Assembly (NCBI GenBank): GCA_964015055.1
Contig: CAXHBG010000002.1
Span: 1-41,242 of the forward strand
Reading direction: 5' to 3'
DNA: 41,242 nucleotides
Source: an uncultured Thermoplasmata archaeon
GTDB taxonomy: Archaea; Thermoplasmatota; Poseidoniia; MGIII; CG-Epi1
Shown one piece after another: positions 1,061 to 19,916 of the stretch; position 1 is the first letter of the stretch; each line of letters starts with the position of its first letter. The notes beneath the pieces are model-generated. The model was not told where the DNA came from, made no database searches, and saw only the letters and a program-made list of their open reading frames with translations. The position numbers and the translations under genes were made by a program.

Positions 1061-1173
1061 ACGGTGCTACTAGCTTATCAGATGATAATAAATGCAGCAT
1101 TCACAACACTTTTAACTCAAATGATTCCTGGGGTTACAATTGGTGGGGCGAGTATTGCTCCTCTGACGAGTAA
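1..1173 (+). CDS. DUF285/BspA-like 26-residue surface-repeat protein, 5' partial
   Basis: 14 tandem copies of a ~26-aa unit (consensus [20 protein letters not shown]). Frame 1 has no stop between nt 1 and the listed ATG at 79 and already encodes a repeat ([16 protein letters not shown]), so the gene starts upstream of the window. Confidence 0.8.
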
Positions 1174-1190
1174 ATGGTGAATAAATTTAG

Positions 1191-1207
1191 AAATTAATAA
1201 ATATTAG
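1191..1207 (+). promoter_or_regulatory. Putative TATA-box promoter for the 1225 gene (leaderless geometry)
   Basis: The A/T box aaattaataaatattag is centred ~26 nt upstream of the ATG at 1225. Confidence 0.35.
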
Positions 1208-1224
1208 AATTTATCTGTACCGAT

Positions 1225-4200
1225 ATGTACAAGATTTTCTTTTTGACAGTCTGCTTGCTTCTTTCACCCTTAATGGGGAATTTTGGAATGGCAATTGGAT
1301 TAGGAAGCGCATCTAACGCACAAACCATTGAAGCCAGTTGGGAATGGTCATCTGTTCTCTCTAATCGCATGAACATCGAATCGGATGACATGGGTACGGA
1401 TTCACAGGGAAATTCCTACATTGTAGGCACTACAGAAGGGCGACCTGATATCAAGGATTCCAGCGTATTCATAGGCGATCAATCGCAACTTGGGAAAAAT
1501 CTCTACGTTGCAAAATTCAACTCCAATGGAAACCTTGTTTGGTTTGCTAATGCAGGTGGGAACGGTGATGATTATGGAAAGGGCATTATTGTAGATGAAG
1601 ACAGCAATGGGAATGTGTTAATCTTCGTGACAGGGCAATTGGAAACACGAGATGTTGACCAGAATCAGGCCCTCATTCAATACAACATACATTTCGGTGA
1701 TGAACTGAATTATACCTCGAATGCTACAGTTGCTCCATTTGTTGCAAAGATTTCCTCGGCAGGGGCTTGGGAATGGGCAAAACTCGGTAAAGGTTTGGGA
1801 ATGAAGGCAGGCATGAGGGATATCGCATTCGATGGAGACAATAGCATCTACATAGGAGGGCGATACAGTGAATCGCTTGCATTCTCTAGTGTGGATAAAT
1901 CTGGAAACGAAATTTGGAATAGAGTATTGAATACATGCTCCGGACAGGCACAAATGGGATTTGTTGCTGCGTTCACTACAGGAGGAGATCATCGATTTAC
2001 TCAACAAACCGGTGGATGTCATACGTGGATTAACGCGGTTGCTGTTAGAGATAATAGCAAACTGTTTGTCGGGGGAGGATATAATCTGGGCGGAACAATA
2101 GGACAACAAACTTACACTGACCATTATTATACCTATCCAAGCGGTGCAACTAGTTCTGTGGGTGAGGAAGCATTCATTGCCACAGTTGATCCATTAACAG
2201 GAGATTGGGATTGGGTACGCAGAATAACAGGATTCAATAAAGATAGAATCAATGATATCGCTATTGATAGTGAGCATGATGCTTTGATTGCAGGAAATCA
2301 TCTTAATAACGTGAGTTTTGAAACGCCTGGTGTAAATTGTTCACCTCAGAGCACAGCATACACAACTAATCAATGTCTTCGATTCTATAACACTGGAGAT
2401 TTTGACATGTTCGTGGCAAAAATTTCGAGCGACGGCGATTGGATGTTTGCAGATTCGTTTGCTGGCGTAAACAATGATGGTATCGGTTCAACAGATTATC
2501 TTCAATCAATTACTCTTGACAGCAGTGATAATTTGTACGTGATGGGATTGTTTGTGAACAATCTTCATCTAGGACTTGACCATTTGCCTAATACGCCACA
2601 AGGACCTAATTATTTTGTGGCCAAAGCTAGCAATAACCCAATTCTTTCAGCTGATGGCGTTACACAAGAGCTTGATTGGATGTGGGCCTGCCAGGCTGGG
2701 CGAGTGGACGGTTACGGTACCGAAGATTTTACAGGTTGGTATTATCAAAAATTTAGCGGCATGGCGTTAGATCCGCAGGGAATTCCAATTATTACAGGAT
2801 TTTTTGAGAGTAGTGTCAAATTTGACCAGGATTACATCTCCGAAACCCCGACCGGAGAAGGCCTCAAGTCCACCTACATTGCTAAACCATCTGCATTTTG
2901 CGCAGACCCGCAGCCAGTACCTCAGCACATTGCTCTATCAAACATCAACAGGGATAATGTCCGTCTTCTTTCCAAATTCACAAATTACTCAAAAGAACAG
3001 GTAACAGATTTTAATTTTGCTGGTAAATTGGTTACAGTCTCCGTAAAGTCACACGGAGGTTATGGTGTTGCCATTGCTGAAGAAGCCTCTGCAAGACACC
3101 ATGGCAGCGATTATGGAGTTCCGATGAAAGGCACTTTGAGTAAACTGACAATCGTTGACGCAGGCAATGATCTCTCCTCACAAGCATTGCTCGATGCTAC
3201 ATATCCCATCGATGATTTTTCAGATTATGGAATCACTTTAGTCTCAGTATCTTCAGATTCATTTTCCAAAAATGAAAATTTTACTGAAAAAGCTAATACA
3301 TTGCAAGAATTGATTGAAAGCGGGATTTTTCCAATTTTTGAAGGTGAAGAGAAAAATGGAGATTCGTCAGATGAAGAGGTAGAAAAAGCACGCAAACCAA
3401 TCAAGGGCTACGTCTATATTCGAAAAACAAATCGAGGCGTTGACACAGGCGAACCAACGGAAATGGGTGTCGTTGCTTGGGGAGTTAAAGAGGCCGGAGA
3501 TGGGAATGGATATGTTGTCGACGATGGATCGCATTCACTGGAAGGAATCAAGTCGGAATGGGCCACTCAGGTCAATTCAGAGGACATTACTGATGTGTGT
3601 CACACATTGTTAACTACCATGGATTTCCTCTCGGAAGAAGATGCTTGCATTTCAGTTCTTGTTGAAGATCTTGAAAAGAGCGTTTCCCAAGATGGCGGAG
3701 GAGAGTGTTACATTACCTCAGTTCCTGTGAAGGACCAGTTTTATCTTGGAAAAGAATCACGAAACGATACAGATGATGGTATGAATATATCAACATCGGT
3801 AAAAAGAGTTGGAGATTTCTCCAAATTCTGCGCGCCTTCAACTGAGCCCGGCGATGAACCTAATAGAGGCTCTCAAAATTGCGGTACTGATGTTGCACTC
3901 TCAGATTTATCAGTTAGTACTGACATGCCATTCTATGAAGTTGGAGATGATGTGACAGTTACTTACGCGATAAATTGCGCCGTTGAACCAACTAACTACA
4001 CGCTCAAAGCAACGACCACTCGTGCATCAAATAACGAAGTTATTAGTGTGCAAGAATATTCGATTGTGGCCTCATCTCTTTCTGAAGCTATTGATGAAAT
4101 TCATATCGATTTAGATGCTGATGTATATTGTGTCGAGGTTTATTTGACTGAAGCAAATTATCCGCAGTTAGACGATGTCTCGACGTGTTTTGTAGTAAGT

Positions 4201-4314
4201 TCACAGGCAACCCCATCCGGAGGAGGTTCTCTTTCAGGCATTGGAATGTTTGTAAGTTTGAGCACCTTACTAGTTGTCGCATTCATTGGACGAAGAATGC
4301 AGATCGATAACTAA
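1225..4314 (+). CDS. Large secreted surface protein with SBBP-type beta-propeller repeats and a C-terminal membrane anchor
   Basis: N-terminal hydrophobic signal (MYKIFFLTVCLLLSPLMG). Recurrent SBBP-like motifs are present (LYVAKFNSNGNLVWF, FVAKISSAGAWEWA, FVAKISSDGDWMFA, YFVAKASNN). The C-terminus is Gly/Ser-rich, then hydrophobic, then RR (GIGMFVSLSTLLVVAFIGRR). Confidence 0.75.
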   Translation: MYKIFFLTVCLLLSPLMGNFGMAIGLGSASNAQTIEASWEWSSVLSNRMNIESDDMGTDSQGNSYIVGTTEGRPDIKDSSVFIGDQSQLGKNLYVAKFNSNGNLVWFANAGGNGDDYGKGIIVDEDSNGNVLIFVTGQLETRDVDQNQALIQYNIHFGDELNYTSNATVAPFVAKISSAGAWEWAKLGKGLGMKAGMRDIAFDGDNSIYIGGRYSESLAFSSVDKSGNEIWNRVLNTCSGQAQMGFVAAFTTGGDHRFTQQTGGCHTWINAVAVRDNSKLFVGGGYNLGGTIGQQTYTDHYYTYPSGATSSVGEEAFIATVDPLTGDWDWVRRITGFNKDRINDIAIDSEHDALIAGNHLNNVSFETPGVNCSPQSTAYTTNQCLRFYNTGDFDMFVAKISSDGDWMFADSFAGVNNDGIGSTDYLQSITLDSSDNLYVMGLFVNNLHLGLDHLPNTPQGPNYFVAKASNNPILSADGVTQELDWMWACQAGRVDGYGTEDFTGWYYQKFSGMALDPQGIPIITGFFESSVKFDQDYISETPTGEGLKSTYIAKPSAFCADPQPVPQHIALSNINRDNVRLLSKFTNYSKEQVTDFNFAGKLVTVSVKSHGGYGVAIAEEASARHHGSDYGVPMKGTLSKLTIVDAGNDLSSQALLDATYPIDDFSDYGITLVSVSSDSFSKNENFTEKANTLQELIESGIFPIFEGEEKNGDSSDEEVEKARKPIKGYVYIRKTNRGVDTGEPTEMGVVAWGVKEAGDGNGYVVDDGSHSLEGIKSEWATQVNSEDITDVCHTLLTTMDFLSEEDACISVLVEDLEKSVSQDGGGECYITSVPVKDQFYLGKESRNDTDDGMNISTSVKRVGDFSKFCAPSTEPGDEPNRGSQNCGTDVALSDLSVSTDMPFYEVGDDVTVTYAINCAVEPTNYTLKATTTRASNNEVISVQEYSIVASSLSEAIDEIHIDLDADVYCVEVYLTEANYPQLDDVSTCFVVSSQATPSGGGSLSGIGMFVSLSTLLVVAFIGRRMQIDN

Positions 4315-4335
4315 CGGTTTCACAGAGCCAATAAA

Positions 4336-4728
4336 TTACTCACATTGAACAATTTCAAGCAGAACACCACCAGTATCTTTAGGGTGAAAAAAGGCAACTA
4401 GTGTATTGTCTGCACCAGGACGAGGAGCTTCCCCAATAGGTTCTAGACCGTTCTTTTTTGCTTTTGCTAAGGATTGTTCAATATCATCAACTTCCAAAGC
4501 TAAATGATGAATTCCAGGCCCTTTTTTGTCAACAAATTTACCAACTGGCGTATCTTTTCCCATTGGTTCTAGTAATTCAATTTCGTAACCACCGACTTTG
4601 ATATGTGCAGTAGTTACTCCTTCGGATTCAACTTCTTCAGTATGATCTAGTTTTAGACCTAGAGATTCCCACATAGGCAATCTTTCCTCAATAGAATCTA
4701 CAGCGATGCCAATGTGTCTTATTTTCAC
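4336..4728 (-). CDS. mce: Methylmalonyl-CoA epimerase (VOC/glyoxalase fold)
   Basis: Full-length match to the MCE pattern (KIRHIGIAV ... ELLEP ... GPGIHHLALEVDDIE ... FFHPKDTGGVLLEIVQ). I place the start at the GTG at 4728 (MKIRHIGIAV). The ORF-track TTG at 4791 would leave only 2 bp to the divergent panD. Confidence 0.85.
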   Translation of the reverse strand: MKIRHIGIAVDSIEERLPMWESLGLKLDHTEEVESEGVTTAHIKVGGYEIELLEPMGKDTPVGKFVDKKGPGIHHLALEVDDIEQSLAKAKKNGLEPIGEAPRPGADNTLVAFFHPKDTGGVLLEIVQCE

Positions 4729-4793
4729 AAATTGCAAACAAAGCGATACTATTTCAAGATTATCAATATTTACCGCCTCCTTAGTAAACAATA

Positions 4794-5153
4794 GTGTCTC
4801 ACAGCATAACCGTATTGAAATCTAAGTTGCACAATGCAAAAGTTACACATGCATTGAAGGACTATGAAGGTTCAGTAGCATTAAGTCCTGAATTAATTAA
4901 ATTGGGGAAATTTTCAATGCATGAACAAGTACATTTGTGGAACATAACACAAGGCACTCGATTAATTACGTACATTATGGAATATGATGGAGATGAAAAA
5001 GGAATAATTTGCGTAAATGGTGCAGCAGCACACAGGGCAAATCCTGGCGATAGAGTAATACTAGCTACTTTTGCCGAAATTGATTCAGAAAAAGCAGATA
5101 ATTGGGAACCTCACATCGTAATTATGAATGAGAATAACACTAAAAAAGAGTAA
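4794..5153 (+). CDS. panD: Aspartate 1-decarboxylase, pyruvoyl-dependent (bacterial PanD type)
   Basis: Collinear with E. coli PanD: KSKLHNAKVTHA, self-cleavage site YEGS, NGAAAH, PGDRVIL. GTG start. Confidence 0.85.
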   Translation: MSHSITVLKSKLHNAKVTHALKDYEGSVALSPELIKLGKFSMHEQVHLWNITQGTRLITYIMEYDGDEKGIICVNGAAAHRANPGDRVILATFAEIDSEKADNWEPHIVIMNENNTKKE

Positions 5154-5169
5154 AATACTAGAAGTTAAC

Positions 5170-5176
5170 TTTTTTT
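5170..5176 (+). terminator. Oligo-T tract downstream of panD (archaeal-type terminator candidate)
   Basis: A T7 run lies 17 nt after the panD stop codon. Confidence 0.3.
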
Positions 5177-5199
5177 AAGAACAACATTAGGCCTTTATT

Positions 5200-7521
5200 A
5201 TGCAACAAAAGGTAGCCCTAGCTATGTTTGCCATTTTACTCATCAGTAATATTGGCGCATCAGCCCCAGCAAATGAGAATGTTTTACACCCCAATATAGT
5301 TAGAGCTATGGACGATGCAGACGCTAATGCACAAATTGAATTCATAGTTCAATATCGTCCTGAACTTACAACTCAGCATTTACAAGTAGCAGAAGAAATT
5401 GGCATTGAAGTTATCAGTACTTTCGAATTTATTGATGGCTTTTTTGGAAAAGCTACAGCTTCACAAATTAGAGATTTAAGCAAACAAGATGATATTTTTT
5501 GGATTGAGCATAATTCACAGATGGAATATTATATGCAAGATACTACCAGAGTAATCAATGCGGTAGAAACCTGGCAAACAGTAATAATCAATGAGAACGA
5601 ACAAGTTATTGCTGATCAAGCTAATCAACATACATACATTGATGGAACAGGAGTAGCTGCCGTAATTATTGACACAGGAGTAGATGCAGGCCATCCTGAT
5701 TTTGATTATGATGAAGGAAAAACAGTTTCTTACAAGTTTGACAGAGCAACAAGAACTTGGATAGAAGCTGAAAATTCCGATACCTCTAGCGGTCATGGAA
5801 CTCACTGTGCAGGAACAGTAGGAGGTAACGGAGATGCATCTGCAGGAGCCAAGAAAGGAGTAGCTCCGGGTGCAACATTAGTTGGAATGGGAGTTGGAGA
5901 CATTGCATTCATTGACAATGCAGTTGAGGCTTTCCAATGGGTTTACGATAATTCAAGGCCAGATGCAAATCCGTTGAATATTCGAGTCACATCTAATTCA
6001 TGGGGAAGTTCAGGTTCAGAATATGATCCATCTAATGCCATTTCACAGGCAGTTCTAAATTTACAATATGATAACAATGTTGTTTCAGTATTTGCAGCAG
6101 GTAATTCAGGAGGAGACGGTAGCGATTTACAAACAAATCCATACGCTAGTATTCCTCTAGTGATTGGAGTTGCAGCACTTGAACACGATGGCTCTGGAAT
6201 TGCAGGATTCTCATCTAGAGGAGACATGACTAAGCCGCAAACATGGCCTGATATTGGAGCGCCCGGAGTAAATATTTGGGCAACAGCCCCTCGAGCCACC
6301 CTAATCGATATACTACAAAGGCCATCAGATGACGATCTTTACTATATGGCAATTTCAGGTACTTCTATGGCAACACCACACATTGCCGGTGTAGCTACTT
6401 TATTGTATCAAGCAGCCCCATCACTAGGAGTTGCAGATTATCTCTATGAAGACCACGAAACCCTTGAAGGTGAATGGTATGGCGACAGAATCGATACTTT
6501 TGTTTCAGAAGCCGAGCTAATTATGGAACTTTCAGGAAGATATATCGAAGGTGGACAATCAAACGCCAATGGAACAGTAAGTAAAACAGGAATGATTCAC
6601 GATTGGGGACAGGGTCATGGATTAATTGATACAAAATATGCAGTCCAGATGGCATTGACTCTAGAAAGTATGAGAAATGCAGATGAAGATGGTGATGGAA
6701 TTCTAGATAATGAAGATGTCACTGTTTTTGATGCAAGAGATGCAATGCTAGGAATATCTCATATCCACAAGGCAAAACAATACACAGATACGCTAAAAGC
6801 AGAATGGAAAGGAGAATGGGCTTATTTTGTAGGTAGCAGCGGAACGTATGTTACAGATTCCACTCACTACTTACATGTCCCAGAGGGAACAGTTAGTGCC
6901 GAAATTGTACTATCTTACCCTCAAGTAAACACAGATAGATTTACCGTTGCAGATTTAGAATTATCAATTGATATTAACAGCGATGGATCAAATGATAACT
7001 CACAGAGCCTAGGAACTAACACTAACGCTAAAGAATACACAATAGCAGTAGATGAGTCCAGTAGCGGTCATCTTTGGGTATTCGGAATTGAAGGAACTGC
7101 AGTAGGAATTAAACCAAATCAAGGAGCAACTCTTGAAGAGTTTTGGGAACCTCGTGTTCCTTACGATGTAAATGTTCGATTGATAATGGGCACAGGAGAT
7201 CACTACGTCGATGAAAATATGACAAATTATGGAGATTATGCTTGTTCCACAGATGGAGTAAATATGAATACACCAAATCAGGCATGCATCTCTAAATTAG
7301 AATTTGGAGAGCCCTCCTCAGCTTACAACGGAACAAATTTCATCGAAATGAATTACAATGCGTTCAATCTAAGTAGATTACAAATGGGAGTTGAAACAAT
7401 ACAAGAAATAGAAGAATCTGCCTGGAATCTCAGAAATGTAGCAATATTCGCCGGAGCTAGCGGAATGATAGGCGGCGGATTGGTATTCATTTTCTCCTCA
7501 CGCCGTATATTCGGAAGCTAA
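5200..7521 (+). CDS. Secreted, membrane-anchored subtilisin-like serine protease (peptidase S8) with I9-like propeptide
   Basis: Signal peptide, then catalytic motifs VIIDTGVD (Asp), HGTHCAGTVGG (His), SNSWG and SGTSMATPHIAG (Ser). Also a DEDGDGILDNEDV calcium-type loop and a C-terminal hydrophobic segment plus RR (GGGLVFIFSSRR). Confidence 0.9.
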   Translation: MQQKVALAMFAILLISNIGASAPANENVLHPNIVRAMDDADANAQIEFIVQYRPELTTQHLQVAEEIGIEVISTFEFIDGFFGKATASQIRDLSKQDDIFWIEHNSQMEYYMQDTTRVINAVETWQTVIINENEQVIADQANQHTYIDGTGVAAVIIDTGVDAGHPDFDYDEGKTVSYKFDRATRTWIEAENSDTSSGHGTHCAGTVGGNGDASAGAKKGVAPGATLVGMGVGDIAFIDNAVEAFQWVYDNSRPDANPLNIRVTSNSWGSSGSEYDPSNAISQAVLNLQYDNNVVSVFAAGNSGGDGSDLQTNPYASIPLVIGVAALEHDGSGIAGFSSRGDMTKPQTWPDIGAPGVNIWATAPRATLIDILQRPSDDDLYYMAISGTSMATPHIAGVATLLYQAAPSLGVADYLYEDHETLEGEWYGDRIDTFVSEAELIMELSGRYIEGGQSNANGTVSKTGMIHDWGQGHGLIDTKYAVQMALTLESMRNADEDGDGILDNEDVTVFDARDAMLGISHIHKAKQYTDTLKAEWKGEWAYFVGSSGTYVTDSTHYLHVPEGTVSAEIVLSYPQVNTDRFTVADLELSIDINSDGSNDNSQSLGTNTNAKEYTIAVDESSSGHLWVFGIEGTAVGIKPNQGATLEEFWEPRVPYDVNVRLIMGTGDHYVDENMTNYGDYACSTDGVNMNTPNQACISKLEFGEPSSAYNGTNFIEMNYNAFNLSRLQMGVETIQEIEESAWNLRNVAIFAGASGMIGGGLVFIFSSRRIFGS

Positions 7522-7535
7522 TACACAAAATTAGT

Positions 7536-7545
7536 AAAGTATATC
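7536..7545 (+). promoter_or_regulatory. Putative TATA box for the 7569 gene
   Basis: aaagtatatc is centred ~28 nt upstream of the ATG at 7569. Confidence 0.35.
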
Positions 7546-7568
7546 AGGCAGCCTGCAAGATAACTAGT

Positions 7569-9050
7569 ATGGGCAAAGAATGGAACTCATTTTTCGCAGT
7601 CATTTTTGTGATGACAACATCGCTTTCAGGCTGTTTAAATGAAGATTCTTCAAATAATTCTCCTATCATCGTAGAAGCAGGACTTCCTGACGGTTTTTTT
7701 GTTACAGATTCAACTGGTAACTATACAGACGTAGCACCATTAGAAATGCAATTTTACTTCAGTAATGTAGGGGAGCAAGGTGCAGAACCTAGTCTGGGCG
7801 TCACTTCTAGCGGCTGTATTTTCTTTATTGCATTTGAAAAACCAATGAGATCATGTGATGGCGGCCTTACTTGGGAAAATACGGCAGATGCTTCTCAAGC
7901 ATTTTTCACAAATGATCCCTACGGTTGGGTAGATCCAATTACTGACCGAGTTTTCAATATTCATATGATGGGACTTTGGACAACGTGGATCGGATGGACC
8001 GATAATGACGGTGAAAGTTGGGAAGCAAATCCTCATGACTCTGGAGCTCCAGTTAACGATCACATCAAACTAGGATCAGGCCCGTGGACTGATGCAGGAT
8101 ATGGAATTGGAGGTGGAGCGACTTCAGGCTTTTATGAAACAGCAGTTTACTTCTGTTACAATAAGCTAGCTTATATTTCATGTTACACTAGTTATGATGG
8201 CGGCGCCTCTTTCGAAGCTGGTGGGAATTTAGTTGGAATAGCTACAGCAAATGGGGGGTTACATGGTGCAATCACAAGTGCACCTGACGGTACAGTTTAT
8301 CTTCCACCTAGAGTAGCAACTCCCGCAATTATCTTCTCTAAAGATAATGGACTCACTTGGGAAGAAAGGACGATGGGGCAAGACGTAGGAACTCCGAATC
8401 CACGTAAGAATGGAGAAGTTGCTACAGACACAGAATCTAATGCTTACAACGTTTGGGTAGGCGGAGATCAAGGAGTTTACATGTCAAGAAGTATTGATTC
8501 TGGAGATACTTGGGATCAAGAAAGTATTCGAGTGAGCCCAGTTGAAGTCATCTCTGCAACTTTTCCACATACTTCTGCAGGAGATCCCGGCAGGATAGCC
8601 ATAGCGTATCTTGGAAGTGAAAATGCTAGTGCACTAGGCCAGCCAGATATAGATGGAAATCCATGGAATGGTAATGCACATTATGCTACTACAAATGTCA
8701 GTCATCACTTATACGTTACATATAGTCTAAATGCTCTTGATGAAAATCCTATATTCCACACTCAAAGACTCACTACAGATCCAGTTCAAGTTGGGAGTAT
8801 CTGTCTTAATAGCGGAGATTGTCGCTCTAATGAAGGCGGTTCTAACCGTAATCTGCTAGACTTTAACGATCTTCACATTGATCTAGAAGGAAGAGTATAC
8901 ATTGCATTTGCAGATGGATGTACTGGAACTTGTGCCTCTGGAGAGGATACTTCGTCATCAAATTCAAGAGATAGATTGGGTTCGGTCTATTACCTTGAAG
9001 CAGGCCCTAGTTTGTACGAATCTGACATTGACCTAATTCCGTTAGTTTAA
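7569..9050 (+). CDS. Secreted BNR/Asp-box repeat protein (sialidase-like beta-propeller fold), probable lipoprotein
   Basis: Lipobox-like LSGC follows the N-terminal hydrophobic segment. Repeated SxDxGxTW Asp-boxes are present (SCDGGLTWE, DNDGESWE, SKDNGLTWE, SIDSGDTWD). Confidence 0.75.
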   Translation: MGKEWNSFFAVIFVMTTSLSGCLNEDSSNNSPIIVEAGLPDGFFVTDSTGNYTDVAPLEMQFYFSNVGEQGAEPSLGVTSSGCIFFIAFEKPMRSCDGGLTWENTADASQAFFTNDPYGWVDPITDRVFNIHMMGLWTTWIGWTDNDGESWEANPHDSGAPVNDHIKLGSGPWTDAGYGIGGGATSGFYETAVYFCYNKLAYISCYTSYDGGASFEAGGNLVGIATANGGLHGAITSAPDGTVYLPPRVATPAIIFSKDNGLTWEERTMGQDVGTPNPRKNGEVATDTESNAYNVWVGGDQGVYMSRSIDSGDTWDQESIRVSPVEVISATFPHTSAGDPGRIAIAYLGSENASALGQPDIDGNPWNGNAHYATTNVSHHLYVTYSLNALDENPIFHTQRLTTDPVQVGSICLNSGDCRSNEGGSNRNLLDFNDLHIDLEGRVYIAFADGCTGTCASGEDTSSSNSRDRLGSVYYLEAGPSLYESDIDLIPLV

Positions 9051-9938: not shown

Positions 9939-12900
9939 TTATTCAGAGTTCTTGTGAAGCCAAATTGCTGTTTCCTTGATTGCTCTTCGGCTTGTGTATT
10001 GAGGAGTCCATCCATGTTTCATTAACTCTTTGATGTCTAACCTCATAAACTTAACGTCACCTTTCCAACCACGACCCCCATCAACTCCACCGGTGAAGGA
10101 ATATTCTACATCGTTTAATTTCATTGCTTTACAAACTTGATCTGCTAAAGTAATAACATCAATTGCATCTTTAGATCCAACATTAAGCGCAATCATTTCT
10201 CCTTTTTCACAAAGTTCTCCTGGAGCCATATTTAGCATTCCAGAAATACAATCTTCTACATGAAAATAAGATTTCTTTTGTTTTCCGTCGCCAAGAATTT
10301 CCAAATTGTTGTTATCTTTTCGGAGTTTATTGACAAAATCAAACGTAACGCCGTGGTTACTTCTCGGACCTACGCAGTTAGCAAAGCGATAGGAAACTCC
10401 TCTGAAATCATTTTCTTTACAGTATTTTTCGATTAATTTTTCAGCATCTAGCTTACTCGTTCCATACGCAGAGATAGGCTTCAATTCAGCAGTTTCTGGG
10501 GTTGGAATTTTCTCAGCATCTCCATATACTGTTGACGTTGATGTAAATACGATATTTTCACAACCAGTTAATTTCATAGCCTCTAAAACACGCTTCGTAA
10601 CATCTACGTTTTGCTCTTGCATTACTTCAGGTTTAGTAATTCCAAGCTGAACTTCAGGATTAGCAGCTAAATGGTACACAATCTTTGCACCCTCGAGATA
10701 TCCTGCAAAGTCCTCATTTAGTAAATCAATATCAATCAATGTAATGTTTTCAATTGATTCTTCGAGGAATTCTAATTGTCCAGATGAAAAGTTATCTAAG
10801 ACAACAACTTCTTCATCTCTCTTTACTAAACGATCAACTAAGTGAGATCCAATGAAACCTGCACCTCCCGTTACAACAACTCTGCGCTTCATATTTTGCT
10901 CAGCCATAGAAACCAGTACTCCAGATTCTAGCTCGGTGGGTTTAGTATTATCTGCATAGTCAGATTTGTCGTCAGCAAAAGATCCGGCCAAAGAGCCGAA
11001 GAAGTCTCCTGTAGTTTTGGTTATATTTTTACTTGTTTTTCCTACAGCACCGAGTACAGTTCTACTTGTATCTCCTGTTACTTTCAATACGGTTCCTCCA
11101 GCGGTTCCTAGTGCACCTACACTAGCATTGATTGGAGCTCCGATGAGTCCTTCTTTGTGAAGACCAAGAGTTTGTGAAACGCCTCCAATAGTTTGTGAAA
11201 CATCTTCCAACTTGATTTCTTCCCAATGTTGGTACAAATAATAGATAACAAGACATAGCCCAATAAACATTACAGTTACTGCAATTTGTAGAGGAGCTAA
11301 GATAGCTAAGACACCCAATCCATAAACGACAGATGCAGACAATATCAATGAGCCACTTATAGCTCCAATCGCAACTGCAGATAAATTTCTATTTGGTGAT
11401 AAACCAATTGCCCTTCCCAAGATGGTACCTCCGACAGCACCAGACCCTTGGAAAGGAAACATAACAAAAACAACAATACCGACAAAAGAAGCCCTCTCTA
11501 ACCAAGGTAAATCTTTCAACATAGCTTTTCCCTTTATCTGTATACGATTTATTCCACTACCTATGAAGGGTATTTTCTTCGCCAAGTCAAAGTTCCAAGT
11601 TAGGAAAACACCTACTGCAATATCGACAAATGCTGTACAGATTGCAATAGCCCAAGGATCAACTCCACCTGCAATTCCAAGCGGAACAACAGTGCCTTTA
11701 CCAAACGGTGGAACAAAATAAACAAGCATAAGTTGAGAAAGAATTAGGAATTCTCTCTGCCCCATACTCAAGAACATTACAACAAAAAAAGCTCCAGTCA
11801 TAATGAATGGTGAAAGAAACTTGAAAAGTCCCAGCATTGCGCTAGGTCCACCGATAGCATATATCAGAATTCCAAGACCCAATACTGCAATACAATCAAA
11901 TGCAATATTCCACCAAAAAGTAATATCAATATCTTTTGAATCAGAATAAATGTATTCATAATTTAAATTTACTGATAAGTTCCCTGAATTTAATTTTTGA
12001 AAACCTTGACCAGTTACACTTCCAGTCTCCCAACCACCGAATGTCGGAGCAGTTCCAGCAGCTAATCCGCCCAATTTTACTTTAGCATTTCCAAAATAAA
12101 GATGAGCTCCGGCTGCGTATTCATCTTCGACATTTCCTCCTACGACTACAATAGCTTCTCCAAGCTCAATAAATGTATGATCAAAAGTTGAAGTAAGAGG
12201 AACGTCGAAATTATAGTTTATTTTTGAGTCTATGAGATAAAAATCATTGACCTCCAAAGCTCTGAATATAACAACATCCATAGAACTTCGTTGAAATATA
12301 CCATCATTTAGTGATGATTGAGACCACTTAGTTCCTGTAATCTCAGTTTTATCAAAAGTAATAGATGTAAAAGTAGAACTTCGAACTAAAAAAGTATCCA
12401 AAACACTCTTTTCGATTCTGCTGGAATCCATATTTACGTTATTGAATAGTACAGCGTTGAATGTCACATTAGACATGACAGATTTACTAAAGTCCACATC
12501 ATTGAAAGTAACTCTTTCAAATTCGCAGTCAATGAAGAAAGAGTCTGTAAATGAATAATCGGAAAATAAGACATCCGTAAATTTTACGTTGGTGAAAACG
12601 GCTGCGGTTAAGTCAGTATCATTGAAATGTACTCTTTGGAATTCCAATCCGCTGGCAAAATTAATATTCATTTCACTATTATTTTCAGAAAGTACCGGAA
12701 ACAATGATTCAGTAGTTCCAGGTTGTAAAATTTTAAAGCTGTCTCCAGGTGCAACAGCAGGATCTAAACCACTGGGAGGAATAGGATATAATCCATTTTC
12801 AATATCTCCATAGTATCTAATATCAGTTAATTTCCCTTCGATTCTAATTTCATCTCCAGAAGAATATTCTAGATATTGCCGATTATTGAATACAGGGTCA

Positions 12901-13307
12901 AAAGAAGCTTCTAAATCTTCAGGATTTTCAGTAATAGCGTACCAAATTCCAGACTGTTCAACACCAACCAATTCTTGGCCATAGCCAGAAAATGTTACGC
13001 CGATTAATCCAATGAAAATGCCAGTTAACAAAATAGGTCTTGCATTTTTCCAAGAATTTTTTAGAGCTCCCACGAAAGCCCATAAGGTATCCATGACTGC
13101 ATCAATTTCATCTCTTTCTCTTTGACTGACAGTTAGCTTTCCTTTTTTCCTAGGGGTATCTAATTTTGTTTGTTTAGTGGTAGTTTTTTTCTTTTCTATA
13201 TCTTTTTTTGTAGTATTTTTCTTGGGCGTTGCTTTTCTTTTGGCAGGAGATTTCTCAGGCGTACCTTTCTTAAACGCCGTCTCTTTTTTCACAGATTTCT
13301 TTGCCAT
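9939..13307 (-). CDS. Multidomain fusion ORF: Lys-rich N-tail, TM, pentapeptide-repeat beta-helix, polytopic membrane domain (COG2426/small-multidrug-export-like), C-terminal NAD-dependent sugar epimerase/dehydratase
   Basis: Uninterrupted 1122-codon frame. aa 223-362 form 28 consecutive 5-residue repeats with F/L/M/I/V/W at the first position. aa ~463-692 contain about seven hydrophobic helices. aa 801-1122 are a complete SDR epimerase (VTGGAGFIGSHL, YGTSKLDAE). Confidence 0.75.
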   Translation of the reverse strand: MAKKSVKKETAFKKGTPEKSPAKRKATPKKNTTKKDIEKKKTTTKQTKLDTPRKKGKLTVSQRERDEIDAVMDTLWAFVGALKNSWKNARPILLTGIFIGLIGVTFSGYGQELVGVEQSGIWYAITENPEDLEASFDPVFNNRQYLEYSSGDEIRIEGKLTDIRYYGDIENGLYPIPPSGLDPAVAPGDSFKILQPGTTESLFPVLSENNSEMNINFASGLEFQRVHFNDTDLTAAVFTNVKFTDVLFSDYSFTDSFFIDCEFERVTFNDVDFSKSVMSNVTFNAVLFNNVNMDSSRIEKSVLDTFLVRSSTFTSITFDKTEITGTKWSQSSLNDGIFQRSSMDVVIFRALEVNDFYLIDSKINYNFDVPLTSTFDHTFIELGEAIVVVGGNVEDEYAAGAHLYFGNAKVKLGGLAAGTAPTFGGWETGSVTGQGFQKLNSGNLSVNLNYEYIYSDSKDIDITFWWNIAFDCIAVLGLGILIYAIGGPSAMLGLFKFLSPFIMTGAFFVVMFLSMGQREFLILSQLMLVYFVPPFGKGTVVPLGIAGGVDPWAIAICTAFVDIAVGVFLTWNFDLAKKIPFIGSGINRIQIKGKAMLKDLPWLERASFVGIVVFVMFPFQGSGAVGGTILGRAIGLSPNRNLSAVAIGAISGSLILSASVVYGLGVLAILAPLQIAVTVMFIGLCLVIYYLYQHWEEIKLEDVSQTIGGVSQTLGLHKEGLIGAPINASVGALGTAGGTVLKVTGDTSRTVLGAVGKTSKNITKTTGDFFGSLAGSFADDKSDYADNTKPTELESGVLVSMAEQNMKRRVVVTGGAGFIGSHLVDRLVKRDEEVVVLDNFSSGQLEFLEESIENITLIDIDLLNEDFAGYLEGAKIVYHLAANPEVQLGITKPEVMQEQNVDVTKRVLEAMKLTGCENIVFTSTSTVYGDAEKIPTPETAELKPISAYGTSKLDAEKLIEKYCKENDFRGVSYRFANCVGPRSNHGVTFDFVNKLRKDNNNLEILGDGKQKKSYFHVEDCISGMLNMAPGELCEKGEMIALNVGSKDAIDVITLADQVCKAMKLNDVEYSFTGGVDGGRGWKGDVKFMRLDIKELMKHGWTPQYTSRRAIKETAIWLHKNSE

Positions 13308-14584: not shown

Positions 14585-15595
14585 CTAGTAGTCTATCTGA
14601 CCGTAGTACCTAAACATTTTTTTACCAATTGGGATTTCACTTTGGAAATTTCTCACGTCCTCTGTGGATATTTCACCCATTGCTAGTTTTAGTGATAAAT
14701 AAGGAGCACAATAGTTCTCTCCGTATATGTATGTCGAAACGCGAGGGTTAATTTCCATCAATATTCCGCCTCTGGTTGATATATCAATACAATAATCCAT
14801 CGGAAGGTGAGTCAACAATTTTTTAGCGTATTCAAGGGCGTTATTGTCTTCAATCATTTCAAATCCCATCGCCAAGCCGGAAGCGAAATTTAACCTATTT
14901 TTAACGGAACAAGTTAGCATGTCACCATCTTTAAGGACTGGATCAATCTTCAACTCCACACCATCTAAATATTCCATTACCATTAGTTCAGGAATTTCTC
15001 TCTCACCGACAGTAGATTTTAGCTCATCCATTGATATATATTTTGCAAAAGGCCTTCCATCAAACAAAAGCTCGTACCTGTTAGATTTTTCGGTCATAAC
15101 TCTTACTCCTCGAGCACCCTTTCCTTCTGGAGGTTTGAATACAACGTCTTTTTCAGGATATCCTAATTTTTCAGCAGCTTTAACTAGTTCAGCCAATGTT
15201 TTAACCAAATAGAATTCAGGAACATCAATTTTCCCTTCAAAGTGTTTGTACATTAGATACTTATTTTCACAAATGGCTACTAGTTCATGTTTTGATGCTA
15301 ATAGTCTACAGTGTTTTTCAATTTCCTTGGCGGATTTCGAAAGATAAAACATCTCCCATGAAGTCTGTGGAAATACAATATCAATATTATTTTTTTTGAT
15401 CAAGTTAATTATAGAATCAACATAATTTTCTTCATAAGCCCAAGGAACAACTGCAAAATCGTCACATAGCCACCTACCGATAGCTTGCTCATTTGCATTT
15501 GTACCTAATATGAAAATATCTTTATCTTGCAATTTTAAGTTCGAAATTAAGGCATGAGCTCCAGGACATCCCACTCCCGTTAATAGAACTCTCAT
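14585..15595 (-). CDS. ATP-grasp family carboxylate-amine ligase
   Basis: Canonical ATP-grasp motifs: VVFKPPEGKGARGVRV (phosphate-binding Lys/Gly loop), MVMEYLDGVE (hinge) and ILMEINPRVS (Mg-binding E-x-N). Confidence 0.8.
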   Translation of the reverse strand: MRVLLTGVGCPGAHALISNLKLQDKDIFILGTNANEQAIGRWLCDDFAVVPWAYEENYVDSIINLIKKNNIDIVFPQTSWEMFYLSKSAKEIEKHCRLLASKHELVAICENKYLMYKHFEGKIDVPEFYLVKTLAELVKAAEKLGYPEKDVVFKPPEGKGARGVRVMTEKSNRYELLFDGRPFAKYISMDELKSTVGEREIPELMVMEYLDGVELKIDPVLKDGDMLTCSVKNRLNFASGLAMGFEMIEDNNALEYAKKLLTHLPMDYCIDISTRGGILMEINPRVSTYIYGENYCAPYLSLKLAMGEISTEDVRNFQSEIPIGKKMFRYYGQIDY

Positions 15596-16734
15596 TGTCC
15601 TTCCTCTTTCAGTAATTCATCATATACTTCGAGCATTTTTTTCTCTTGAAGTTCCCATGAGTAATTCATTTTAAATGCTTTATAGCCATTTTCGCCCATT
15701 TTTTTTCTAAGATCTTTGTCGTTAGCTAAAGTAGTCAGGGCATCAGCCCAATCTTCAGTTACAAGGCCACATTCATATCTTTTAACTATTTTTTGACGAG
15801 CTTCATAGGGCCCTACAATAACCGGAACTTTGTAAGCCATGGAATCTAATAATTTCTTTGGTAAAGCATAGCCTCTCATTCTTTCATCAACATAATGTCC
15901 TACCATTAGAATATCACATGCAGCGTAGCATTCATTCATCATACTATATGGTAAAGGCCCAGTAAACTTAGCGTTAGCACCTTTTTCTAAAGCCAACTCT
16001 TCAAGTTCAGAAATCATATCTGTATATCCTGAATGTCCTTTAGGAGGCCCCCCTACAATTAAAACACTTAATGCATTAACTTTAGACGCAGCATCTAGTA
16101 TTTCTTCTAGAATAGGCTTTCTTAACCCTCCAATATAGCCTGCAACTATACCATCCAAACCGAATTTATCGTGTAAAACTGGTTCTTTGACAGTTTCCAG
16201 TAGCTCAGAATTATACAAAACAGTACCGCCACCTAATCGAAGAGCCAGTTCATCTGAAACAGTGAACATTGCATCTACAGTTCCAATTAATTTTTTCTGT
16301 TTTCTTTCATAATATTTTCCAATAAACCAGTTTTGAACACTTTCCATCATTGGCCAATCTTCATGAGAATCAAAGATAATTTTAGTACCAGTTTTATTCT
16401 TTATATTTACAGCAACATCAAGAACTTCTAAATCGTGAGCATGAACAATATCGGGTTCATACTCAATAACTTTTTCTTCAAGCTTTTTTAGAGCTTTTCT
16501 AAAACTTTTAACTTTGGAAAAGAACCCTCCTTTCAAATCTTCAAAAATTCGAACGACCTTGATTCCGTCTCTCTCAACTTCCCATTTTGTATCATATTTC
16601 TCTAATCGCCTAGACCAACAAAAAACAGTTACTTCATATCCTGCTTTGATTAGGGCTAAAGCTTCTCGATAAACTCTAGTATCTTCATTTGGAATAAGCA
16701 AATCATGACCTAAAACCATTGCAATTTTCGTCAT
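15592..16734 (-). CDS. Glycosyltransferase, GT-B fold, family 4-like
   Basis: Two Rossmann-like halves. The C-terminal half has the typical LPKKLLDSMAYKVPVIV...GLV nucleotide-sugar binding region. 4-nt overlaps with both neighbours. Confidence 0.8.
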   Translation of the reverse strand: MTKIAMVLGHDLLIPNEDTRVYREALALIKAGYEVTVFCWSRRLEKYDTKWEVERDGIKVVRIFEDLKGGFFSKVKSFRKALKKLEEKVIEYEPDIVHAHDLEVLDVAVNIKNKTGTKIIFDSHEDWPMMESVQNWFIGKYYERKQKKLIGTVDAMFTVSDELALRLGGGTVLYNSELLETVKEPVLHDKFGLDGIVAGYIGGLRKPILEEILDAASKVNALSVLIVGGPPKGHSGYTDMISELEELALEKGANAKFTGPLPYSMMNECYAACDILMVGHYVDERMRGYALPKKLLDSMAYKVPVIVGPYEARQKIVKRYECGLVTEDWADALTTLANDKDLRKKMGENGYKAFKMNYSWELQEKKMLEVYDELLKEEGQ

Positions 16735-17501
16735 AATAATTGATCTAACCTCACTTTAATCGTCTCAAATCCTTCAGCAAAAGGGCTTGATAATTGTATA
16801 CCTCTCATTTTTACTACAGATCTAAAAAATTTCTCACTAAAATAAGGGTTATGTTTTTGACTATCGTAGCAATCTAATGCTAATATTTTTTTCTTTATGT
16901 GTCTTTCTTCAAGCGGAATAAAGCAATTTAGTGAAACAGATAGATTATTCCAAGGTAATTCATATCCAAGTAAAGTACAATTTCTGAAAGCTCGTTTAGC
17001 TTCAGCCGTCACCACTCCATGATCTTGGTGAATATCAGTAGTAGTGGGAGTGAAAACTAAATCATAATCTATACTTCTAGAATGGTCGTATAGCGCTTGC
17101 AAAATTTCTTGTCTATCTCTTGGAAAAAATCTAGTATGAAAATCTAAAACTTCATGAGTAATCCCTAATATTTTACCTGAGTTTGCAGCCTCTTCAACTA
17201 AATTAGGATATCTTTCAGCCACAGCACTAAAATAAATTACATGTACTTTCCAACCTTCTTCAATAAGCTTGGCAATTGTCCCCCCACAACCTAACTCTGC
17301 ATCGTCCGTGTGAGGACTAAGGACTAGGGCTTTTTTGGCAGTATTATTCTTTAGTTTCGAACTTACAGTATTTCTTAATAGTTCGCTAATATTTTGGTTA
17401 CTACATTTAGCTTCTTCTTTGAAAGATTTCCAATTATCAGAAAATTCATCAGTTATTGTGAACAGATATTGTTCTGGTTTTTTTCCTTTCTTCCACACCA
17501 T
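16731..17501 (-). CDS. PIG-L/LmbE-family N-acetylglucosaminyl de-N-acetylase with ~55-aa N-terminal extension
   Basis: Motifs LVLSPHTDDAELGCGG and HQDH are typical of PIG-L zinc deacetylases. The extra N-terminal segment is described in the findings. Confidence 0.8.
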   Translation of the reverse strand: MVWKKGKKPEQYLFTITDEFSDNWKSFKEEAKCSNQNISELLRNTVSSKLKNNTAKKALVLSPHTDDAELGCGGTIAKLIEEGWKVHVIYFSAVAERYPNLVEEAANSGKILGITHEVLDFHTRFFPRDRQEILQALYDHSRSIDYDLVFTPTTTDIHQDHGVVTAEAKRAFRNCTLLGYELPWNNLSVSLNCFIPLEERHIKKKILALDCYDSQKHNPYFSEKFFRSVVKMRGIQLSSPFAEGFETIKVRLDQLL

Positions 17502-17552
17502 AAGTTATATATCTTTAAATAAATGGTTATATAACCTTTTTTATGGTTAATT

Positions 17553-18104
17553 ATGGAAGAGATTAAAATAGAAAATTTTGAAGGAGTGTATGAACCTGCA
17601 GAAGATTCCTGGATGGTTTGTAATTATCTTCCAGAAGAACTGGGTTCAGCGTTAGAAATAGGCTGCGGTTCTGGAATTATCTCTATACATTTGGCTAAAA
17701 GAGGAAACACTGTAACTTCCGTTGACATCAATCCTAAAGCCGTAAGTGCTACGAAATTTAATGCTAATCTAAATAAAGTAAACATTGAAGTTTTAGAAGG
17801 AAACATGTTTGAAAAAGTTAAAGGTCGCAAATTTGATTTCATAGTTTGCAACTCTCCCTACCTGCCTCCAACAGAAGATTATAATGATCCAGAATTAGCT
17901 TTAGCAGTCGAAGGAGGTCCTACAGGTTCAGAATTTACAATTGAATTGTTGTCTAAAGCTGAAGAATTTCTTAAGATTGGCGGAAATTTATATCTTATAA
18001 TATCGAGCAAAATGAAAAAGATAAATGTAGATTGGAAAAGAGAAGTTATATGCGAACAGAAATTCTTTTTTGAAAGACTTACTTTAGAACGATTTTGGAA
18101 ATAG
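17553..18104 (+). CDS. HemK/PrmC-related SAM-dependent methyltransferase (archaeal Mtq2-like)
   Basis: SAM motif I EIGCGSGIISI and motif IV VCNSPYLP (NPPY-type). Its ~180-aa size matches archaeal HemK-related methylases. Confidence 0.75.
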   Translation: MEEIKIENFEGVYEPAEDSWMVCNYLPEELGSALEIGCGSGIISIHLAKRGNTVTSVDINPKAVSATKFNANLNKVNIEVLEGNMFEKVKGRKFDFIVCNSPYLPPTEDYNDPELALAVEGGPTGSEFTIELLSKAEEFLKIGGNLYLIISSKMKKINVDWKREVICEQKFFFERLTLERFWK

Positions 18105-19301: not shown

Positions 19302-19916
19302 TTACGGTCCTAACCTATTAGGTTTTTTTAAATTATCTGGTAGTTTACTAAAAACTGCGGGACATCCTTTTGCCATATGCCATGCAGGAACATCTTTAGT
19401 AACAACAGCACCTCCAGCAATGAATGCCCCTTTTCCAATTGTTAATCCAGGCATTATAGTTGCATTAGACCCAACAGAAACATCGTCCTCAATAGTAATG
19501 GGTTCACAATGGTATTCAGTTCTTAAAGGAATTTTATCATTTGTTAGAGATGCATTTGGACCAAGAAATACTCTATCCCCAATGACAGTTCCAGTTGGAA
19601 TATATGCTCCAGTTTGAAAACTACAATAATTCCCAATAGTACAATTATTATCTACAACAACATTGGTTCCTATTAAGCATCCGTCTCCTACAGTAGTATT
19701 TTCACGAACAAGAAAGTTATGACCAGTTCTAGTTTTTTTACCTAATTTAGCTGTAGAATATACTGACCCAGGTCTTATGATTGATCCGGCCCCAATCACA
19801 CAACCTGCAATTTCTTTAGATTCTTTTTCTAATTCTTTTGAGTGAGGATAACCAATTAAAGCATCTGAATCAATAAAACAATCATCTTCGATAATAGATT
19901 CGCCGTAAATGGGCAT
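19302..19916 (-). CDS. Left-handed beta-helix (hexapeptide-repeat) acyl/acetyltransferase
   Basis: Repeated [LIV]-G-x4 hexapeptides (IGAGSII, VGDGCLIGTNVVV, IGNYCSF, IGDRVFLG, VGSNATI, IGKGAFIAGGAVV). Confidence 0.8.
   Translation of the reverse strand: MPIYGESIIEDDCFIDSDALIGYPHSKELEKESKEIAGCVIGAGSIIRPGSVYSTAKLGKKTRTGHNFLVRENTTVGDGCLIGTNVVVDNNCTIGNYCSFQTGAYIPTGTVIGDRVFLGPNASLTNDKIPLRTEYHCEPITIEDDVSVGSNATIMPGLTIGKGAFIAGGAVVTKDVPAWHMAKGCPAVFSKLPDNLKKPNRLGP

Follow-up and report, generated by a model that had tools for sequence, protein, structure and literature searches.

A conserved PIG-L deacetylase, GT4 glycosyltransferase and ATP-grasp ligase operon of marine Poseidoniia as a possible pathway to an N-aminoacyl-glucosaminide

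The 41,242-nucleotide stretch of DNA analysed here (the window) comes from an uncultured archaeon whose closest genomes are metagenome-assembled genomes (MAGs) of Marine Group III (MGIII; Poseidoniia). It carries an operon of three genes that encode a PIG-L/LmbE-family zinc N-deacetylase, a GT4 glycosyltransferase (GT) with a GT-B fold, and an ATP-grasp carboxylate-amine ligase. We tentatively interpret this operon as a self-contained, soluble three-enzyme path to an N-aminoacyl-glucosaminide, which follows the logic of bacillithiol and mycothiol synthesis and employs a different ligase. From archaea to Actinomycetota the deacetylase and the ligase co-evolve, in many cases with translational coupling, while the genes that neighbour them in related genomes point to a sulfur-containing substrate. 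A sequence-only reading of the window had proposed an operon of this kind, with a low-molecular-weight thiol as one possible product.

The three open reading frames (ORFs), read from the sequence, are intact and all lie on the minus strand: the PIG-L gene, first in the operon, at 16731-17501 (256 amino acids, aa), the GT4 gene at 15592-16734 (380 aa), and the ligase gene at 14585-15595 (336 aa). The start of the GT4 gene overlaps the PIG-L stop, and the start of the ligase gene the GT4 stop, in two 4-nucleotide (nt) ATGA junctions (...TTATTATGACG... and ...GGACAATGAGA...). The coordinates, the overlaps and the operon structure given by the sequence-only reading are therefore exact, as are its three family assignments, since PF02585, PF13439/PF00534 and PF02655 are all matched above their gathering scores with motifs intact. 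None of the three proteins contains a hydrophobic segment compatible with a transmembrane (TM) helix. The ligases of the closest MGIII genomes are 86-88% identical to that of the window.

The first protein belongs to the PIG-L/LmbE family (PF02585, E = 7e-18, 65.7 bits against a gathering cut-off of 28.2). Its catalytic motifs, SPHTDDAELGCGGT and HQDH, are intact, and SPHTDDxExGxGGT (SPHTDDAE) and HQDH are kept in all partner PIG-Ls compared. The curated BshB1 model (TIGR04001) reaches only 52.8 bits against a cut-off of 182.5, and the best solved relatives found by sequence search, TT1542, BshB1 and Dac, are all weak (E = 1e-5 to 1e-7). An N-terminal extension of about 55 aa (residues 1-55) is kept in the PIG-Ls of Marine Group II (MGII) and MGIII and is absent from all other partner PIG-Ls. 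This extension (57 aa in the Pfam search) has no Pfam match; it gives the impression of a strand-helix-helix arrangement resembling a ribbon-helix-helix, for which a single-sequence AlphaFold model is unusable (pLDDT 34.8).

The second protein is a GT4 enzyme by both of its domains (PF13439, E = 4e-13, 50.1 bits; PF00534, E = 2e-12, 47.5 bits). Its best solved relative, deposited as "Predicted glycosyltransferases" (3c4q), which we take to be MshA of C. glutamicum, aligns with residues 222-378, the C-terminal domain only (E = 6e-7). The MshA model (TIGR03449), whose cut-off is 462.5 bits, likewise covers the C-terminal half alone and scores 40.4 bits; the 13 families that the curated-model search lists at E≤0.01 include no BshA model. 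The best 120 homologs are all from Poseidoniia, at no less than 75% identity, and bear generic names only. Neither a PIGA domain, by Pfam, nor a TM segment was found in this protein. By the curated models, the GT4 is thus no relative of MshA or BshA, and the PIG-L is not BshB1. Because the curated cut-offs are missed, the resemblance to mycothiol and bacillithiol synthesis, to which the sequence-only reading had pointed, is one of logic and not of family membership.

The third protein scores above the gathering thresholds of three ATP-grasp models (PF15632, E = 3e-11; PF21360, E = 6e-8; PF02655, E = 2e-5), and the residues expected of this class (K154, E208 and E281-x-N283-P-R285) are invariant across the family alignment. 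Its AlphaFold model (pLDDT 87.8) is a confident ATP-grasp fold. A Foldseek search places the uncharacterised 2pn1 first, followed by the L-amino-acid ligase RizA (4wd3) and then by PurT, PurK and CPS, with probability 1.00 to many ATP-grasp enzymes at 12-19% sequence identity; it gives no substrate-specific neighbour. Sequence searches of solved structures with all three proteins returned weak, uninformative matches only. The window ligase shares its fold and Mg-ATP motifs with RizA, BL00235, D-Ala-D-Ala ligase, glutathione synthetase and PurT/PurK, and presumably also the acyl-phosphate/amine mechanism established for such enzymes. It differs from them in forming a distinct family that co-evolves with PIG-L, and its predicted nucleophile is a sugar amine instead of an amino acid. 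The family comprises 108 clusters at 50% identity (E≤1e-30) among 1.84 billion representatives. In a neighbour-joining tree the window ligase falls into a Poseidoniia-specific clade, "type A", and all other PIG-L-associated ligases fall into "type B". Fusions occur in three members, P0355 (611 aa), P0487 (412 aa) and P0481 (416 aa), and involve a WbqC-like domain, a sodium:alanine symporter fragment and a PilS-like 6TM domain.

The operon occupies a fixed position in Poseidoniia. In all sampled loci of MGIII and MGIIb the genes are ordered SecY, Hexapep, Adk, EMC3, (HemK2), PIG-L, GT4, ATP-grasp, and the trio is found in the same order and the same slot in 16 of 18 type-A Poseidoniia loci, an arrangement far beyond chance. 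The genes 3' of the ligase vary between Poseidoniia clades. Since the upstream order is fixed and the downstream genes are clade-variable, the trio is a self-contained unit in a housekeeping slot and does not belong to any larger glycan island. The genes annotated around this slot include no flippase, polyprenyl-phosphate GT or oligosaccharyltransferase. One Poseidoniia relative (L009, 3138-4606 and 5852-6742) has an AbiEii/AbiEi toxin-antitoxin pair between EMC3 and HemK2, as well as an opposite-strand Methyltransf_24 gene between PIG-L and GT4.

An exchange of the ligase ties the three genes to one another. One MGIII clade (L043, L053, L055, L057, L066 and L068) has orthologous PIG-L and GT4 genes (E = 1e-146 and 1e-200) in the same slot, where three genes take the place of the type-A ligase: a PGDH-like gene, one for a type-B ligase, and a CysK/CBS-like gene on the opposite strand (e.g. 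L066:1432-4360). The incoming ligase is 35% identical to that of the window. Replacement of the ligase in situ by a paralog, with PIG-L and GT4 kept, is strong evidence that all three enzymes serve one pathway. Locus L057, labelled Chloroflexota, is clearly an MGIII contig and is probably mis-binned.

To place the ligase in a wider setting, its distribution was taken from a scan of GTDB species genomes, and neighbourhoods were counted over 86 loci, with neighbour proteins clustered using reciprocal coverage. The archaeal hosts are MGII, MGIII, Asgard archaea (Heimdall-, Hod-, Hermod- and Promethearchaeota), Bathyarchaeia and Hadarchaeota. Many bacteria also carry the family, chiefly Thermoleophilia and other Actinomycetota, as well as Chloroflexota, Verrucomicrobia, Bacteroidota and Leptospirales. 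In 72 of the 86 loci, across two domains of life, a cognate PIG-L is found no further than about 3 kb from the ligase, and in 48 the two are directly adjacent. This pairing is seen in Poseidoniia, Asgard archaea, Bathyarchaeia, Hadarchaeota, Thermoleophilia, Chloroflexota, Verrucomicrobia and Bacteroidota, and independent gene calls show the two genes overlapping by 4 nt in several loci. The partner PIG-Ls match that of the window (phmmer E = 1e-37 to 1e-67) much better than they match any characterised member of their family. No PIG-L is nearby in an N-terminally extended sister clade of ligases located beside RNA cyclase genes (L001, L003, L027 and L028), in two MGII type-B copies (L037 and L039), or in two Asgard copies (L032 and L059).

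The glycosyltransferase partner is less constant: it is a GT4 of the window type in Poseidoniia, a moderately similar GT4 in Hadarchaeota (2e-30), and a generic GT4, a GT2 or another GT-B enzyme elsewhere. Because this partner differs between lineages, the PIG-L/ATP-grasp pair is the evolutionary core. Conservation of the trio as a unit, which the sequence-only reading had set as a check, is seen within Poseidoniia, and outside them conservation applies to the pair. That PIG-L exposes a sugar amine and the ATP-grasp enzyme re-acylates it, as the sequence-only reading supposed, is the logic that fits best, given the co-evolution and frequent coupling of the two genes. A search of full-text literature, in which subscription journals are mostly uncovered so that absence is no proof, found no paper describing a PIG-L/LmbE and ATP-grasp cassette, none linking ATP-grasp enzymes with cysteate synthase or taurine-glycans, and none linking cysteine dioxygenase with Poseidoniales.

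The neighbours of the pair include a range of genes of sulfur metabolism. In a type-A sub-clade of Poseidoniia (L021-L023 and L093-L095), whose ligase is 69% identical to that of the window, PIG-L, GT4 and ATP-grasp form a four-gene operon with a CDO_I gene, which starts 3-4 nt after the ligase stop. In L023, PIG-L and GT4 are not nearby, and the ligase and the CDO_I gene are still paired. The encoded protein is a 225-aa cupin (CDO_I, 29.8 bits against a Pfam cut-off of 23; "cysteine dioxygenase family protein" by NCBI name). Its best solved relatives, 3eqe and 4qm8 (deposited as putative cysteine dioxygenase and cysteine dioxygenase, respectively), which we take to be the B. subtilis enzyme, have YGR, HDH, LIHxMxNP and LHVY in common with it. 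These shared residues presumably correspond to the three-His iron site, the arginine that binds the substrate carboxylate, and the H-x-Y motif. The fourth gene thus belongs to the cysteine dioxygenase family by sequence, and cysteine dioxygenase activity is predicted for its product.

Beyond Poseidoniia, the sulfur genes are of other types. Within 3 kb, loci of Promethearchaeota contain genes for a PAPS reductase, a fused ComDE and a cysteate synthase that scores 549 bits (cut-off 325), divergent from an operon of an AsnC regulator, the ligase, PIG-L and a second ATP-grasp enzyme. Bathyarchaeia loci contain ComD and ComE, both over their cut-offs, with an adjacent class-III aminotransferase, and in Hodarchaeales ComA is found near the PIG-L/ATP-grasp pair. 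The two Asgard loci without an adjacent PIG-L (L059 of Heimdallarchaeota and L032 of Promethearchaeota) have ComA together with a PAPS reductase. In the former (L059:6674-12211), these share a cluster with a type-B ATP-grasp gene, a pyridoxal-phosphate enzyme of the class I/II aminotransferase fold, and an XcbC-like lyase (493 bits), of which L032 has a near-identical homolog. This cluster has the appearance of an undescribed C3-sulfonate route in Asgard archaea that are not methanogens, akin to the start of bacterial coenzyme M (CoM) synthesis, whose first steps are catalysed by XcbB and XcbC (PMC9457059). Members of these CoM and C3-sulfonate modules (cysteate synthase, ComA, ComDE; XcbB and XcbC) that score above or near their cut-offs flank the type-B ligase in Asgard archaea and Bathyarchaeia; they are neighbours in relatives and not parts of the window operon, and none is found in the window.

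Importers are represented as well. An SsuA-type sulfonate importer of the ATP-binding cassette type is located directly upstream of the pair in L029, L038 and L056, and no further than about 3-5.5 kb from it in L007/L049 and L072; none of these loci has genes of the cysteate synthase, PAPS reductase, Com or XcbC type. Several non-homologous routes that make or import a C3 (or C2) sulfur compound therefore adjoin the ATP-grasp family. Ligase neighbours of about 508 aa were considered as a single family, which was rejected: those of L059 and L032 are the XcbC-like lyase, and those of L034, L048 and L007 are an unrelated protein with 12-15 TM segments. The latter has no Pfam match (L034:10821-12347, L007:3218-4759) and stands beside the pair in Promethearchaeota and Heimdallarchaeota, with genes for a GT4 and a PF01663 phosphodiesterase.

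In the proposed pathway, the GT4 enzyme would move N-acetylglucosamine (GlcNAc), presumably from UDP-GlcNAc, onto an acceptor. PIG-L would then take off the N-acetyl group to expose the 2-amine, and the ATP-grasp enzyme would turn an amino-acid carboxylate into an acyl-phosphate, which it would couple to this amine. Such acylation is expected since it is the established chemistry of the family, and the fold is nearest to those of L-amino-acid ligases, PurT and PurK. The likeliest acyl donor would be a C3 sulfur amino acid: L-cysteine itself, cysteine sulfinate or cysteate, the latter two being oxidised forms of cysteine. These are favoured because the clues from Poseidoniia (cysteine dioxygenase, PGDH-like and CysK/CBS-like genes) concern cysteine and its immediate derivatives. 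The same genes speak for the cysteine-related product envisaged by the sequence-only reading; a free thiol fits no better than an oxidised acyl group or the C3 sulfonates. In Poseidoniia, the product would most likely be a low-molecular-weight cytoplasmic conjugate, a thiol or a sulfinate/sulfonate analogue of bacillithiol. That MGII/MGIII, Asgard archaea, Bathyarchaeia and Thermoleophilia all make an undescribed family of cysteinyl-, cysteine-sulfinyl- or cysteoyl-glucosaminides (Cys-, cysteine-sulfinyl- or cysteoyl-GlcN-X, where GlcN is glucosamine) with a dedicated ATP-grasp enzyme and PIG-L is a broader idea, possible but rather doubtful.

Bacillithiol (BshA, BshB, BshC) and mycothiol (MshA-D) synthesis resembles the trio in having GT4 and PIG-L/LmbE as its first two enzyme families, in its logic (GlcNAc-glycoside to GlcN-glycoside to N-cysteinyl-GlcN-glycoside), in its soluble proteins, and in the location of its genes amid housekeeping genes. 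A link to cysteine is provided by the sister clades of the window. The systems differ in the ligase, which is BshC or the Cys-tRNA-synthetase-like MshC in the known pathways and an ATP-grasp enzyme, of a different superfamily, in the trio. They also differ in the archaeal host and in that the GT4 and PIG-L proteins of the trio score far below the MshA and BshB1 cut-offs. No BshC, MshC or MshD is among the annotated ORFs of the 41-kb window. The genes near the trio's relatives (cysteine dioxygenase, cysteate synthase, ComA, ComDE) hint at a sulfur acyl group in oxidised form, in place of a thiol or alongside one.

A number of observations weigh against this interpretation. Every step of the pathway is predicted from genes and their context, and so are the sugar transferred, its acceptor, the sequence of the reactions, the amino acid that serves as acyl donor and the solubility of the product. 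The window contains no cysteine dioxygenase, CysK-like or sulfonate gene, and for this reason the acyl donor in its organism is extrapolated from sister clades; in another genome, a more divergent copy of the dioxygenase is found at a different site. The sulfur neighbours relate to diverse compounds (cysteine, cysteine sulfinate, cysteate, sulfoacetaldehyde, sulfoacrylate), and no single molecule emerges from them. ComDE, in addition, strips the carboxylate that an ATP-grasp enzyme needs, and would fit taurine as an amine substrate. Since the GT partner is not conserved, the order in which glycosyl transfer comes first is weakened, and the substrate of the pair could be a nucleotide sugar, which is what the name of VimE in NCBIfam implies in the Wbp/Vim system. 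The operon also has a slightly lower GC content (0.34-0.36) than its flanks (0.38-0.41). Finally, the pair is accompanied by glycan genes in some relatives: loci of Thermoleophilia and other Actinomycetota have the order GT4, PIG-L, ATP-grasp, GT4, Wzz, along with Bac_transf and DegT, and in one JGI locus (L090) the pair is surrounded by an AglH/WecA-type GT, DUF354, a GFO oxidoreductase, a GT2 and a GT4. These settings argue for a polymer-bound product at least there.

The most serious alternative retains the deacetylation and N-acylation chemistry and directs the sugar to a surface polymer (S-layer or N-glycan, exopolysaccharide, or an O-antigen-like polymer), with the ATP-grasp enzyme as an analogue of the Wbp/Vim system. 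The modification may then take place at the nucleotide-sugar or lipid-linked stage, and the GT4 enzyme may install the modified or to-be-modified residue. There is precedent for this order of events in Porphyromonas gingivalis and Tannerella forsythia, where the deacetylase VimE and the aminoacyl transfer by VimA yield 2-N-seryl- or 2-N-glycyl-3-N-acetyl-(gluc/mann)uronic linking sugars (PMC7468200). The Porphyromonas pathway makes 2-N-seryl-3-N-acetylglucuronamide by deacetylation at N-2 followed by the addition of Ser or Gly (PMC7468200). As in the route proposed for the trio, an amino sugar loses its 2-N-acetyl group and then receives an amino acid on the freed amine. VimE, however, is a CE4 esterase-family protein and not a PIG-L, VimA is FemAB/GNAT-like and not an ATP-grasp enzyme, and the context is that of lipopolysaccharide. 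None of VimE (CE4), VimA (FemAB-like) and WbpA/B/D/E is among the annotated ORFs of the window, which by these ORFs does not match the Wbp/Vim system.

Besides the glycan genes around the pair in Actinomycetota and L090, several features of the relatives are in keeping with a surface destination. The Thermoleophilia loci (e.g. L080:2213-11238) contain a second putative deacetylase/ligase pair, formed by a DUF7033 VimE-like protein (111 bits, below the cut-off of 440; a gene found in bacterial relatives only) and another ATP-grasp enzyme, which suggests glycans with two different N-acyl amino sugars. Nucleotide-sugar 6-dehydrogenases are adjacent in L006, L007, L029 and L038, and a UDP-GlcNAc 3-dehydrogenase-like gene is near the pair in several loci. 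The protein with 12-15 TM segments in Promethearchaeota and Heimdallarchaeota, the family member that is a WbqC-like/ATP-grasp fusion, and the variable GT partner, which would suit modification at the nucleotide-sugar level, can be counted on the same side.

The picture in Poseidoniia is different. There the trio stands alone among housekeeping genes, its proteins lack TM segments, and no flippase, polymerase, Wzz, initiating transferase or AglB is among the annotated genes of the window. Its position and sequence are kept (75-96% identity in many MAGs), unlike surface-glycan islands, which are usually hypervariable. The sequence-only reading had named a recognisable glycan locus of known chemistry as what would speak against it. 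Such surroundings exist in part for the bacterial relatives and L090 (Wzz, Bac_transf, DegT, AglH-like GT) and not for the window, and no known glycan chemistry accounts for the PIG-L/ATP-grasp pair. A nonulosonic-acid pathway was rejected, as no NeuB-, PseI- or LegI-type genes are near the trio. We therefore regard a surface-glycan residue as possible but doubtful, and prefer, still tentatively, a small cytoplasmic conjugate of the bacillithiol type, since the operon is soluble, self-contained, fixed among housekeeping genes and conserved. The two outcomes could each hold in different lineages.

It is improbable that the ATP-grasp enzyme instead forms an amide from an amine (taurine or an amino acid, for instance) and the carboxylate of a uronic acid or acidic aglycone, leaving PIG-L as a separate tailoring enzyme of the same molecule. 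Glucuronate-amidating ATP-grasp enzymes have been described for Campylobacter capsules. In Bathyarchaeia, the sulfopyruvate decarboxylase and the adjacent class-III aminotransferase would yield taurine, which offers an amine but no carboxylate. Relatives also have SsuA-family binding proteins, with taurine-binding models as weaker matches, and the 6-dehydrogenases adjacent to the pair in the four loci listed above are of the kind that makes uronic acids. Nevertheless, no such dehydrogenase is near the trio in the window, and the Poseidoniia neighbours (cysteine dioxygenase, CysK/CBS-like, PGDH-like) make α-amino acids that bear a carboxylate. Amidation also leaves unexplained why, among tailoring enzymes, it is the deacetylase that is universally coupled to the ligase, in translation too.

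Still less likely, and in our view very unlikely, is an archaeal counterpart of PIG-A and PIG-L that builds a head group of the glucosaminyl-archaetidylinositol type, to be aminoacylated by the ATP-grasp enzyme. PIG-A is a GT4 enzyme and PIG-L the namesake of the deacetylase family, so that the gene pair matches the first two steps of glycosylphosphatidylinositol synthesis. The GT4 protein, however, has no PIG-A-specific Pfam domain, the trio has no membrane segment, no gene for an inositol-phosphate or archaetidylinositol synthase is in the window, and the deacetylase/ligase pair occurs, with a GT partner that is not conserved, in bacteria, which lack archaeal lipids. That the three genes are neighbours with no common pathway, PIG-L being for instance a catabolic deacetylase of the chitobiose type, is hardly credible: diacetylchitobiose deacetylases are among its weak solved relatives, but the ATGA overlaps, the pairing in 72 of 86 loci from two domains, the displacement of the ligase by a paralog with PIG-L and GT4 kept, and the absence of an adjacent glucosaminidase or chitinase all stand against it.

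Upstream of the trio, a divergent intergenic region of 51 bp (17502..17552, minus strand) separates PIG-L from HemK2/MTQ2 (17553-18104, plus strand). It contains a purine-rich stretch and TTATATAA (17534-17527), centred about 29 nt upstream of the PIG-L ATG, which by comparison with known promoter architecture is a candidate archaeal promoter (B recognition element and TATA box) for a leaderless or short-leader operon mRNA. A sigma-70 scan gave 22 promoter-like sites against 18.4 expected, by a bacterial model that is uninformative for an archaeal host, and a scan for intrinsic terminators, also of bacterial type and not informative for an archaeon, found none. Beyond HemK2/MTQ2, archaeal housekeeping genes are located on the strand of the trio: an ortholog of the SecY gene called in L093-L095 (19916-21625, minus strand; assigned by orthology to those loci), a hexapeptide acyltransferase, an archaeal adenylate kinase and EMC3/TMCO1. 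The hexapeptide-repeat acyltransferase (19302-19916, minus strand) sits between the SecY and adenylate kinase genes, a position that is kept in all Poseidoniia loci sampled and is unusual for the archaeal spc-secY-adk cluster. Its top match is NeuD/PglB/VioB-like (86.6 bits, under the cut-off of 160.8).

Downstream of the trio are a tRNA-Ser gene and a gene for a 1122-aa fusion protein (9939-13307, minus strand). In this protein, pentapeptide repeats and an Sm_multidrug_ex membrane domain are joined to a GalE-like NAD-dependent sugar epimerase/dehydratase at the C-terminus. Only in the closest relatives of the window (L011 and L012) does its gene follow the trio. Predicted surface or secreted proteins are encoded at 79-9050 (plus strand), including a DUF285 repeat protein, a 1029-aa SBBP beta-propeller, an S8 subtilase and a BNR-repeat protein. 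At the other end of the window, two overlapping plus-strand ORFs in different frames (37333-38868 and 38733-39755) jointly resemble one class-I aminoacyl-tRNA synthetase. The first corresponds to the N-terminal part of tRNA-synt_1, and the second to its C-terminal part with Anticodon_1. The gene may be truly split, or a frameshift or faulty assembly may account for the two ORFs.

Redox buffering, osmoprotection and the traffic of organic sulfur in the ocean all depend heavily on thiols and sulfonates of low molecular weight. To our knowledge, the major thiol has not been identified for most archaea or for any uncultured planktonic Euryarchaeota, and we know of no in vitro reconstitution of the amide-forming step of BshC. 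The proposed use of an ATP-grasp ligase for N-aminoacylation after deacetylation of a GlcNAc-glycoside, with a sulfur-bearing acyl group, is probably new. The prediction involves three or four small soluble proteins and is directly testable. The operon is fixed beside core housekeeping genes over an order-level radiation of very abundant marine archaea, and its deacetylase/ligase core recurs, beside several non-homologous C3-sulfur routes, in Asgard archaea, Bathyarchaeia and soil Actinomycetota. If the proposal is correct, the trio would represent a new ligase solution for the amide step of bacillithiol-type pathways, and its product a new class of amino-sugar conjugates that bear sulfur. The cysteate and sulfopyruvate genes of archaea that are not methanogens would then gain a function. 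For Poseidoniia, it would mean the first archaeal compound of the bacillithiol/mycothiol type and a new organosulfur metabolite in the marine sulfur cycle.

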